Part shown: piece by piece, positions 15,006 to 17,811 of the stretch
How positions within the stretch are numbered: position 1 is the first letter of the stretch
Layout of the letters: each line of letters opens with the position of its first letter
Origin: Alphaproteobacteria bacterium
GTDB taxonomy: Bacteria > Pseudomonadota > Alphaproteobacteria > SMXQ01
Direction: 5' to 3'
DNA: 24,245 nt
Assembly: GCA_050480665.1 (NCBI GenBank)
Contig: JBJHAU010000001.1
Location: forward strand, 1 to 24,245
Notes under the pieces: generated by a model
What the model was told of the DNA's origin: nothing
The model's input: the letters and a program-made list of their open reading frames with translations, nothing else
Database searches by the model: none
Program-made: the position numbers and the translations under genes

Positions 15006-15395
15006 TCAGGCCCCCGTCAGCAAGGCAACGACCCAGGCCAGGATCGTCAGCAGGAAGGATGCTCCCACAACGGCCCAGCCGGACCGGCGGGCCACCGGCA
15101 GGGAAAAGCCCATGCCGATATCCCAGAACAGGTGCCGGATGCCGTTGCAGAGATGATAGAACAGCGCCCAGGTGAACCCGAACACCACCACCTGACCCGG
15201 CCAGGACTGCACAAGCCCCTGCACCGTGGCGAAGGCCCCGGCGCCGGAGGCCGCCGCCACCAGCCAGACCACCAGGCCCACCGCGCCAAGGCCAAGGGCC
15301 ACGCCGGTGATCCTGTGCAGGATCGACAGCACCGAGGTGATCTGGGGACGGTAAACCTGAAGATGCGGGGAAAGAGGCCGGTTGTCATGTGCCAT
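15006..15395 (-). CDS. sdhC: Succinate dehydrogenase cytochrome b556 subunit
   Basis: MAHDNRPLSPHLQVYRPQITSVLSILHRITG; YHLCNGIRHLFWD.G.G. ATG 15395 preferred over 15413 (GGAG 12 nt upstream). Confidence 0.96.
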   Translation of the reverse strand: MAHDNRPLSPHLQVYRPQITSVLSILHRITGVALGLGAVGLVVWLVAAASGAGAFATVQGLVQSWPGQVVVFGFTWALFYHLCNGIRHLFWDIGMGFSLPVARRSGWAVVGASFLLTILAWVVALLTGA

Positions 15396-15671
15396 GGGGG
15401 CAGGAAACTCCATTGATGGCCATTGCCGATGGCCCTTGCGAACGGCAAAACGGCAGAACAGCCCGTGCCGACAGCCCTCGCCGAGGGCTCAGACCGATGG
15501 CCCCCGCTGTGAACCATGACGCGCCGGATGTCTCCCAATCCGATCGCGCAGGGGAAGGGGCGGGATTTCGGAACCGACTTCCGAAGCCGCATCGCGCGGA
15601 ACCGGGAACGCCACCATGGGCAGGGCCGGGGGCCAGGCCACAGGCAGAACCGGAGACAAGGCGTGGGGTTT

Positions 15672-15700
15672 CGTTTAGACCCATGCGATTTACGAGTCAA
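15672..15700 (-). promoter_or_regulatory. Candidate sigma70 promoter of the sdh operon: TTGACT-N17-TAAACG
   Basis: -35 TTGACT (15700-15695, 5/6 consensus), 17-nt spacer, -10 TAAACG (15677-15672). It implies a ~270-nt leader. Confidence 0.55.
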
Positions 15701-15789
15701 CGCCCACAATGGTTCATTCTGGCGGTTTGCCGCAACGCGACAGGGCAACGGTTTTCCGCAACGGCATCCTGTGGCGCAAGGCGCGAGGC

Positions 15790-15878
15790 ACGCCACGGCC
15801 CCCACACCCGCCCCCCCACCCGGTGGTCGGCTTCTTGGCAAGAGGGTCAGCCCTACGCCACGGCCCCCCCACCCGGTG
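15790..15878. repeat. Imperfect direct repeat with C-tracts; canonical G-quadruplex motif on the minus strand (15799-15821)
   Basis: acgccacggccccc at 15790 and 15855; cccccccacccggtg at 15811 and 15864. Minus strand GGG-T-GGGGGGG-C-GGG-TGT-GGGGG. Confidence 0.7.
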
Positions 15879-16075
15879 ACACCGCCCGAGAGCATCCGCA
15901 AGGGATTTCACGGATTGCGACAAGACACGCAGCAGGCTGCCTTCGCGAAGAGGTAACGGAAGGGCTTTTTTCCAGCCGGGCGAACCCCATCCATGAAGCC
16001 ATGAGGGAGGCATGGCGACGACCCCTCGAAGACTTCCTTTCAAATCAAGGGGCTGGAGCCCGGCCCGTGAAGGCC

Positions 16076-16136
16076 TGTGGGCAGTTCTGTGGGAAAGATG
16101 TGACCAGATTGTGGACAGCGCGGATTCTGTGCACAG
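16076..16136. promoter_or_regulatory. Array of five co-oriented DnaA-box-like 9-mers
   Basis: TGTGGGCAG 16076, TGTGGGAAA 16088, TGTGACCAG 16099, TGTGGACAG 16110, TGTGCACAG 16128; spacing 12, 11, 11, 18. Each has 1-3 mismatches to TGTGNAWAA. Confidence 0.45.
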
Positions 16137-16310
16137 GATTCTCTGCGGCCGCACGGCATTTTTCTTGCCCCTGCGCCGCGGCGCGCGCACCCTGATTGCA
16201 GTACAGTGAGGTCACGAACCGACAAGGATCGCACGCCGTGGTATTCGGGGGGACGCCCGGAAACGCGTGCGGGAGACCGGTTCGAAGGTCGGGAGAATGG
16301 TCGGAGGCAC

Positions 16311-16654
16311 TGGCCGGTTTTCCTGACCTGGTCTGGCGGTTCAGACGGGTGATCCGGCCCAGCCGGGTTCTGTCGATCCCCGAGCCCACCTGCCAGGGTG
16401 GGCGCCGCCATGCCGGGGGGCATGTTTTCGCCGCCTTGCCCGGATCAACCGGGAAAGGCAGGGTCAGGCAGGCCAGAGAGCACGCTTCCCGGTGGACAGG
16501 CCCCTTGCGGGGCGCGCGCCGAGGGGTTTCCTGATGCGCCGGGCCGAAAGGGCCGGTGCGGAATCGAGCCCCGGAAGCTGCGCCGATGTCCGCCGCCCAG
16601 GCTGTATGCGAGGCACCGGGAGGATGGCTCAACCTCCTCCCGGTGCCTTTTTTT
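16311..16654 (+). ncRNA. Candidate structured non-coding RNA (5' end unknown) ending at an orphan intrinsic terminator
   Basis: Seven consecutive hairpins, a long-range helix (16311-16330 with 16459-16475), a GAAA-capped hairpin and a plus-strand terminator with no credible plus-strand CDS upstream. I did not recognise a family. Confidence 0.4.
16611..16654 (+). terminator. Rho-independent terminator
   Basis: Perfect 14-bp stem aggcaccgggagga/tcctcccggtgcct, 10-nt loop, T7 run at 16648-16654 (first T is also the last stem base). There is no A-tract on the 5' side, so it is oriented for a plus-strand transcript. Confidence 0.85.
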
Positions 16655-16795
16655 CTCACGGTGCCTTTTTTCTCCGACCTGCCCTTTTCCCGCCTCGACC
16701 ACTGTTTCGTCCGAAGGGCCTTTGGGCCCGGCTTTCGCGCGAAGGATCGGCCGGAAACCCGGGCCCGATACGGGCGGCTTCTATCTTGCCCCGGA

Positions 16796-17698
16796 TCACC
16801 CCTCGTTTTCGGCCTTTCTGGCGTCCAGCATGTCGGCCATGGCCACCAGACGCCGCGCATCCTCGACATGAAGGGCTTCCACCATCCGCCCGTCGAGAAC
16901 GGCCACCCCCTTGCCTTCGGCCCGGGCGGATTCGAAGGCGGCGATGATCCGCCGGGCATCCTCCACCCGTTCCGGGACGGGTCCGAAGGCGGCATTGGCC
17001 GGGGCGATCTGGCAGGGATGAATCACCTGCTTGCCATCGAACCCAAGCATCCGGCCTTGCGCGCAGGAGGCCTCGAATCCCGGCCCGTCCCGGAAGGGCG
17101 GAAAAACCCCGTCGAGAATTCCAAGCCCATGGGCCCGCGCCGCCATCAGGGTCTGTTCCAGCGCATAGAGCATCGCGGTGCGGGGTGGACTGCCATCGGC
17201 CCGCAATTCGGTGGCCAGATCCTCCAGCCCCATGCAGAACAGGCGCAGGGCCGGATGGCTTGCGGCGATTTCGGCAGCCGCCAGAATGGCCCGCGCGGTT
17301 TCCATCATCGCCCACAGCGCTGGCGCGCCCTCCGAACGGCCCAGCCTGTCGCCCAACCGGCGAAGGGTTTCGGGATCGGTCACCTTGGGCACCAGAAGCG
17401 CATCCACCGGGGCCGAAGCGAAGGCCTCGCAATCCGCCTGGCCCCAGGGGGTGTCGGGCGCATTGATCCGCACCACCCGTTCCCGGTCGCCATAGCCCCC
17501 TGCCGTCAGCGCGTCGAGAATGGCGGAACGGGCTTCATCCTTGGCATCGGGCGCGACCGAATCCTCGAGATCGAAGATCAGGACATCGGCATCAAGGCTT
17601 CGCGCCTTGTCATGGGCGCGCCGGTTCACACCCGGCAGATACAGCGCGCTGCGCCGGGGCCGGAAGGCAGGAGAGGATGTGTGCGAAGAGGGATTCAT
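16796..17698 (-). CDS. HpcH/HpaI-CitE family CoA-ester lyase, most similar in motifs to malyl-CoA thioesterase/lyase (Mcl2-like)
   Basis: RRSALYLPG; ADVLIFDLEDSV..DAKDEAR; VVRINA.DTPWG; LLVPKV; WAMMETA; MG.EDLA.EL; LDGV...F.D..G; G...GFDGK..IHP.Q; GVAVLDGRMVE.LH. Start at ATG 17698 preferred. Confidence 0.88.
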   Translation of the reverse strand: MNPSSHTSSPAFRPRRSALYLPGVNRRAHDKARSLDADVLIFDLEDSVAPDAKDEARSAILDALTAGGYGDRERVVRINAPDTPWGQADCEAFASAPVDALLVPKVTDPETLRRLGDRLGRSEGAPALWAMMETARAILAAAEIAASHPALRLFCMGLEDLATELRADGSPPRTAMLYALEQTLMAARAHGLGILDGVFPPFRDGPGFEASCAQGRMLGFDGKQVIHPCQIAPANAAFGPVPERVEDARRIIAAFESARAEGKGVAVLDGRMVEALHVEDARRLVAMADMLDARKAENEG

Positions 17699-17811
17699 GA
17701 GAGACAGGCTCCGGTTGCGCCAAGGACCGATGAGGGCTCGACAATCCATGCCAGCCTAGCCTTCGCCCGCGACCGGGGCAACCGGGGTGCCATACAGGAG
17801 CGCCCTGTTGC

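Follow-up and report, generated by a model that had tools for sequence, protein, structure and literature searches.

A predicted structured RNA gene upstream of sdhC in an alphaproteobacterial genome and its relation to an uncatalogued RNA family

Given that the gap between sdhC, which opens the sdhCDAB operon, and a citE-like lyase gene is annotated as empty, the question raised by this locus is what a hairpin-rich stretch within it represents. The gap measures 1382 nt (15414-16795), and the stretch had been flagged in a sequence-only reading as a structured RNA transcribed divergently from the sdh operon. The window, by which we mean the whole stretch of DNA analysed (24,245 nt), belongs to a 2.2-Mb MAG in 327 contigs (91% complete), the sole species of its genus among the genomes compared. 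According to the folding analysis, the plus strand from 16200 to 16654 is most likely a real structured non-coding RNA gene of about 455 nt, longer than flagged, and this predicted RNA would account for most of the 'empty' 1.4-kb gap in the annotation.

Coding potential, folding statistics and the predicted fold

The possibility of a protein-coding gene or pseudogene was rejected. Three-phase GC is flat across 15420-16790, as against a codon-position contrast of 0.48 and 0.87 in the flanking genes, the six overlapping ORFs gave 0 Pfam matches, and the corresponding gaps of related genomes hold no consistent ORF; the earlier impression that none of the overlapping ORFs looks like a protein was therefore borne out. 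Comparison with Rfam 15, a check that had been proposed along with the flagged stretch, gave 0 cmscan matches for the window at the gathering threshold. The gap returned just terminator-driven chance matches of 18 bits or less at E<=10, and the relatives' gaps returned nothing even at E<=1, so that the RNA is uncatalogued there. Repeated palindromes of the REP or MITE kind were rejected as well, since each domain gives mere chance matches of 13-20 nt in the genome. Searched by BLASTN in the own genome, in 40 relatives and across the whole order, the gap and the RNA gave self and chance matches alone; one 26-nt match, in the relative G011, was dismissed because it sits upstream of an unrelated gene.

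Folding statistics single out one part of the gap. The plus strand of 16200-16654 has a z-score of -7.2 with 60 shuffles, or of -6.2 with a folding tool, far from zero on either estimate, and the minus strand one of -3.0. Removal of the terminator (16200-16605) leaves -4.1 on the plus and -0.8 on the minus strand, and the originally flagged span treated in the same way (16311-16605) gives -2.95. Elsewhere in the gap the scores are -0.08 (plus) and +0.53 (minus) for 15420-15875 and +0.79 and +0.39 for 15700-16155, while 22 random 455-nt windows of the genome have a plus-strand mean of -0.24 (sd 1.06, minimum -2.1). The value for 16200-16654 departs by more than 6 sd from both the genome and the adjacent spacer, and this comparison therefore identifies the excess structure as local, strand-specific and a strong outlier.

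These scores bear directly on the reading that there is no RNA gene here, and that the stretch consists either of chance hairpins in a GC-rich spacer or of elements that act at the DNA level, for example as DnaA titration sites or as origin-like sequence. Hairpins are indeed common at 68% GC, and a DnaA-box-like array adjoins the stretch (Table 1). However, chance hairpins would not be expected to yield a strand-specific outlier of this size next to a perfect unidirectional terminator. A location at oriC was rejected on the basis of GC skew, which is unswitched in the window and which, at the orthologous locus in G020 (the most contiguous relative), stays negative to either side across 400 kb; because the skew keeps its sign in both, the box array is not at an origin. 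We accordingly regard the absence of an RNA gene as very unlikely.

The fold was computed on the single sequence 16200-16656 (plus strand). The minimum free energy structure (-262.6 kcal/mol) and the centroid hardly differ, and every main helix has a pair probability between 0.85 and 1.0. The two ends are predicted to meet in a closing helix, P1, around five stem-loop domains (D1 to D5), and an intrinsic terminator follows (Table 1); P1 is not predicted once 60 further 5' nucleotides are added to the folded sequence. The terminator, described earlier as perfect and as facing away from both flanking genes, proved to be so, with its U7 run on one side and no T run after the stem on the minus strand. 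A simple consensus terminator scan missed it, as the loop exceeds 8 nt. Downstream, the combination of GGTGCC and a T run occurs twice within 16642-16675, which places a second U-rich tract 18 nt further on.

Some parts of the sequence-only reading fared differently. Its enclosing long-range helix was drawn from complementarities that are present as written (tggcc 16311-15 with ggcca 16471-75; cctgacc 16322-28 with ggtcagg 16462-68), but enforcing that helix costs +15.2 kcal/mol, its pair probability is about 0 and its bases sit in the 19-bp hairpin of D2, the predicted closing pair being P1 instead. Five of its seven hairpins (16352-68, 16384-403, 16433-59, 16500-13 and 16536-59) recur in the minimum free energy fold with probabilities near 1, whereas those at 16331-46 and 16409-24 do not; their bases form longer-range helices, in part with one another (16334-40 with 16404-10) and in part with 16484-90. 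The proposal of an unannotated, multibranched plus-strand RNA, transcribed divergently from sdh and ending at 16654, agrees with the computational tests, although the predicted length becomes about 455 nt, as against some 340 nt in that proposal; nothing was found that points to the protein-sponge RNA also suggested.

Table 1. Coordinates of the features in and around the gap (positions are those of the window)
Feature	Position	Strand	Basis or remark
sdhC	15006-15413	minus	first gene of sdhCDAB; bounds the gap on one side
Five TGTG-type DnaA-box-like 9-mers, phased	16076-16136	plus	starts at 16076, 16088, 16099, 16110 and 16128; direct reading and nhmmer
Promoter-like element	16165-16193	plus	-35 TTGCCC (16165-70), 17-nt spacer, -10 CACCCT (16188-93); alignment with 25 relatives
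Predicted structured ncRNA, about 455 nt	16200-16654	plus	fold z, pair probabilities 0.85-1.0; coding signal, Rfam match and repeat copies absent
P1 closing helix, 5' strand	16201-16207	plus	pairs with 16601-16607 (probability 0.85-1.0); positionally homologous to the family's co-varying 5'-3' helix
P1 closing helix, 3' strand	16601-16607	plus	predicted fold, partner of 16201-16207
Five stem-loop domains inside P1	16215-16594	plus	helix list of the minimum free energy fold, pair probabilities; sequence similarity to relatives not detectable
D1	16215-16284	plus	stem-loop domain in the predicted fold
D2	16286-16329	plus	19-bp hairpin holding the 9-codon mini-ORF
D3	16330-16414	plus	stem-loop domain in the predicted fold
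D4	16415-16490	plus	stem-loop domain in the predicted fold
D5	16491-16594	plus	stem-loop domain in the predicted fold
Intrinsic terminator	16610-16656	plus	15-bp stem (16610-24 with 16635-49), then U7 run
Second, tandem copy of the 3' half of the terminator (GGTGCC and T run)	16660-16675	plus	direct reading of the sequence
citE-like lyase gene	16796-17749	minus	bounds the gap on the other side

A conserved RNA at the corresponding site in related genomes

Related genomes reveal a conserved RNA at the same site, between sdhC and the citE-like gene, in at least 25 genomes from seven genera of the taxonomic family to which the window organism belongs. The synteny of citE-like gene, gap of about 1.0-1.4 kb and sdhC is kept, and the relatives' gaps are mutually conserved at the DNA level. 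The profile built from these relatives detects the element in 15 of 15 loci with an orthologous citE-like gene, and the element lies upstream of sdhC in genera g2, g6, g7, g8, g9, g10 and g11 (15 + 10 family loci). It was not found at the sdhC site of genera g3 and g4, where the gaps are short. The RNA usually measures 590-820 nt (about 270 nt in one short form), and bona fide members have plus-strand folding z-scores of -2.9 to -5.7. Literature searches did not turn up an account of this RNA.

Alignments show a fixed layout in which phased TGTGGATAA-type boxes, matching the DnaA-box consensus, come first; next are a TGCACAAG element and a promoter (CTTG, 17 nt, GATCAT), and last is the RNA itself. 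The latter is rich in tetraloop-capped helices of variable length and carries an invariant CYCCCCAAGG motif, a hairpin with the invariant CUCUCCCUGGGGA and a CCGGGAGC hairpin; at its end stands a three-way junction that GGCGUCAGG and CCUGACGCC close by pairing, and a U run comes after it. Compensatory changes occur in the 3' domain. The extreme 5' end pairs, over a long range, with the segment directly before the CCGGGAGC hairpin, and four positions of this helix carry alternative Watson-Crick pair types; cognate 5'/3' duplexes have a mean energy of -14.8 kcal/mol, compared with -9.4 kcal/mol for partners taken from different genera.

Beyond the taxonomic family, the RNA was picked up by a covariance model of the 3' domain (R1, the E-values of which are rough) in about 10 of 150 other alphaproteobacterial families. 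The scores of true members range from 27 to 157 bits, and those of members from other alphaproteobacterial families from 27 to 57. Nearly all matches of an exact-motif scan over all species genomes fall in uncultured Alphaproteobacteria, next to a chance background in Actinobacteria.

Several further observations concern the family alone. The natural short form, in G005 (locus L061, genus g6), lies at about 975-1248 in a window-like orientation; it keeps the box array, the promoter, the 5' end, the CUCUCCCUGGGGA hairpin and the terminal junction while dispensing with the middle 400-500 nt, and can usefully serve as a minimal canonical member. The invariant motifs CCCCAAGG and CCCUGGGG are complementary to each other at 7 of 8 positions and, judged by this complementarity, could make a tertiary or pseudoknot contact; both are absent from the window. 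Most genomes of g7, g8 and g10 have an additional perfect TTATCCACA box after the terminator, in the opposite orientation to the array, and this box is likewise absent from the window. Matches of R1 are doubled in some genomes from other alphaproteobacterial families, namely in G158 (L128, about 870 nt apart on one strand) and in G176 (L132 and L136, on two contigs), from which it follows that the family RNA can be duplicated.

The window locus compared with the family

The two best nhmmer matches of the relatives' profile within the 24-kb window are collinear and both fall in the gap, one on the sdh promoter motif (15666-15713) and the other on the box array (16074-16135), which is also the best nhmmer match at the locus in a search of the own genome. 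Array spacing in the window (12/11/11/18) is identical to the geometry in the alignment of 25 family RNAs, although all boxes are degenerate, the best agreeing with TGTGGATAA at 7 of 9 positions. Downstream of the array lies a TGCACAGG element, and the -35 box comes next at the distance seen in the family. This -35 box and the 17-nt spacing are kept with respect to the family's CTTG and GATCAT, whereas the -10 box is poor (CACCCT against GATCAT). A sigma-70 consensus scan over 16165-16193 found no promoter, and it is the alignment with the relatives that suggests that the element may act as one. The 5' end of the predicted RNA, from 16200 onward and including GUACA, aligns with the 5' end of the family, which would place the start of transcription near 16200.

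The closing helix provides a second line of comparison. P1 of the window sits at the position of the family P1, immediately before a hairpin with the stem core CCGGGAGG, which resembles the family's penultimate CCGGGAGC hairpin and here forms the terminator stem. The cognate duplex of the window has an energy of -15.5 kcal/mol, compared with -9.6 and -9.4 kcal/mol when either strand is offered foreign partners, and foreign partners equalled it in 0 of 25 and 1 of 25 cases.

The differences are no less pronounced. R1 finds its best match in the window at 16541-16656 (plus strand), which is where the family layout would put it, but the score is 11.4 bits with a rough E of about 0.05, and its search of the own genome gave no match. 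CYCCCCAAGG is absent from the gap, and CUCUCCCUGGGGA from the window, at up to 3 mismatches; the GGCGUCAGG/CCUGACGCC three-way junction has no match in the gap, where a simple 15-bp hairpin terminator stands instead. BLASTN and nhmmer find the body of the RNA (16216-16600) similar to no relative. A AUGUCCGCCG match to a family motif at 16583-92 was set aside, as it probably lacks structural homology because its pairing in the window differs from that in the family. Neither a second copy (nhmmer with the family profile) nor a canonical family RNA elsewhere was found in the own genome. No close relative of the window-type RNA turned up among GTDB representatives or JGI metagenomes, which makes it a singleton; the metagenome scan, with the citE-like protein as query, found no relative above 61% identity.

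Taken by place, strand, array geometry, -35 box, GUACA start and closing helix followed by a CCGGGAG-type hairpin, the window locus is, on this sequence evidence, homologous to the family RNA gene. It differs in lacking CYCCCCAAGG, the CUCUCCCUGGGGA hairpin and the GGCGUCAGG/CCUGACGCC junction, in its length (about 455 nt against the usual 590-820 nt), in its dissimilar body and in its degenerate boxes and -10 box. The predicted window RNA is a radically remodelled ortholog, its body shortened and rebuilt beyond recognition, and this is the new part of the present finding.

The dissimilarity of 16216-16600 to any relative would also fit the idea that an unrelated, lineage-specific sRNA or a small-ORF mRNA has replaced the ancestral body behind the old promoter, and an SD-like GGGAGA before the ATG of the ORF at 16297 agrees with the second variant. 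Yet the locus shares with the family its 5' end, the layout of the closing helix and a hairpin at the 3' end. The small-ORF reading raised earlier is unlikely, since both the start codon and the ribosome-binding site are buried in the 19-bp helix (pair probability about 1) and a coding GC pattern and Pfam matches are absent in every frame. Replacement by an unrelated RNA or mRNA is, in our judgement, quite improbable.

Decay deserves more weight, as the locus could be a relic, that is, a descendant of the family RNA gene that has lost its function in a small-genome lineage, with a dead promoter and with hairpins and terminator as leftovers. The disappearance of all invariant motifs and of the terminal three-way junction is consistent with this, as are boxes of which none exceeds 7 of 9 positions, a -10 that reads CACCCT, the finding of no other copy in a 91%-complete genome and the evidence from g3 and g4 that loss at the sdhC site happens. 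A body changed beyond recognition should, however, also lose its excess stability, whereas the window RNA, at a z-score of -7.2 (-4.1 without the terminator), exceeds the conserved members. The two strands still differ, the terminator has a perfect stem and the closing helix co-varies with its own partner. We therefore consider a relic unlikely, though less so than replacement by an unrelated transcript.

With moderate confidence, we lean towards the reading that 16200-16654 is a compact non-coding RNA gene, a positional ortholog of the family RNA that is still functional though remodelled. This is favoured because neutral decay to saturation should erase stability, strand signal, terminator and co-varying closing helix. 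Under this proposal, the RNA would be transcribed from a sigma-70-type promoter immediately behind the helically phased DnaA-box-like array, and the replication initiator DnaA would probably tune its transcription, a control that we infer because the promoter lies directly downstream of the array. The 5' end would pair with the segment just before the last hairpin and thereby close the five-domain body, and this hairpin would double as the intrinsic terminator, the penultimate hairpin of the family having been recruited for the purpose. The lineage would have lost the invariant C-rich motifs and the three-way junction and would have allowed boxes and -10 to degenerate, but kept the closing helix and a very stable fold, and it is for this reason that the RNA is probably still made and still selected for structure, though in an altered or reduced role.

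More tentatively, and on balance doubtfully, the window RNA could retain full function as a radically minimised member of a class, so far undescribed, of large RNAs under DnaA control. If so, the 'invariant' C-rich motifs and the terminal junction of the class would be dispensable, and its conserved essentials would be the DnaA-array promoter and an end-closed, very stable RNA body. What matters would then be DnaA-gated transcription or bulk folded RNA rather than a specific sequence motif, and the locus would offer a natural minimal construct with which to study how replication status is coupled to an RNA beside the sdh operon of the TCA cycle.

Known systems, significance and other elements of the gap

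Long, multi-domain, highly paired and tetraloop-capped non-coding RNAs closed by end pairing are known from the Rfam families OLE, GOLLD, ROOL and the raiA motif, all of them large, 'ornate' orphan RNAs of bacteria, which the predicted RNA resembles in these respects. Unlike them, it comes from a different phylum, is smaller, is linked to a DnaA-box array and shows no sequence or structure match to them.

DnaA-regulated promoters outside oriC are found in E. coli at dnaA, nrdAB and mioC. The likeness consists in a DnaA-box-like cluster just upstream of a sigma-70-type promoter, remote from any GC-skew switch; in the window, by contrast, the product is a predicted structured RNA rather than a protein, and the boxes are weak and putative. 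Another point of comparison is CcnA, which has a size of about 180 nt. It is a cell-cycle-linked non-coding RNA of Caulobacter (PMC8959179) that shares with the window RNA its alphaproteobacterial origin and, as is proposed for the window RNA, has an expression tied to the replication and cell-cycle machinery. It differs in being small, in its location at the origin and in base-pairing with the ctrA and gcrA mRNAs; no sequence relation between CcnA and the window RNA was seen.

Few large structured RNAs to which no function is assigned occur in bacteria, and the study of each has been rewarding. The family RNA adds one that is outside Rfam and occurs in many uncultured Alphaproteobacteria, and its DnaA-type boxes hint that replication status may be connected with an RNA next to an operon of central metabolism. 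We contend that the window can be regarded as a natural deletion-and-divergence experiment on this family: array geometry, 5' end, closing helix and high stability survive, while all invariant loops and the terminal junction have vanished, which points to the parts that look dispensable and helps to define the family core. It is also a caution that sequence or covariance models will miss variants of this kind.

The remainder of the gap holds elements of its own. A sigma-70-type promoter of sdhCDAB can be read on the minus strand at 15672-15700 (-35 TTGACT, 15700-15695; 17-nt spacer; -10 TAAACG, 15677-15672), collinear with a nearly invariant motif of the relatives, and it implies a 5' leader of sdhC of about 250 nt in the window, as against roughly 40-110 nt in the relatives. 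Between this promoter and the box array lie some 370 nt (15708-16075) with no coding signal, a folding z-score of about 0 and no similarity to the relatives. Within this segment, a GC-rich sequence of about 23 nt (CGCCACGGCCCCC...CACCCGGTG) is directly repeated, at about 15791-15828 and 15857-15880.
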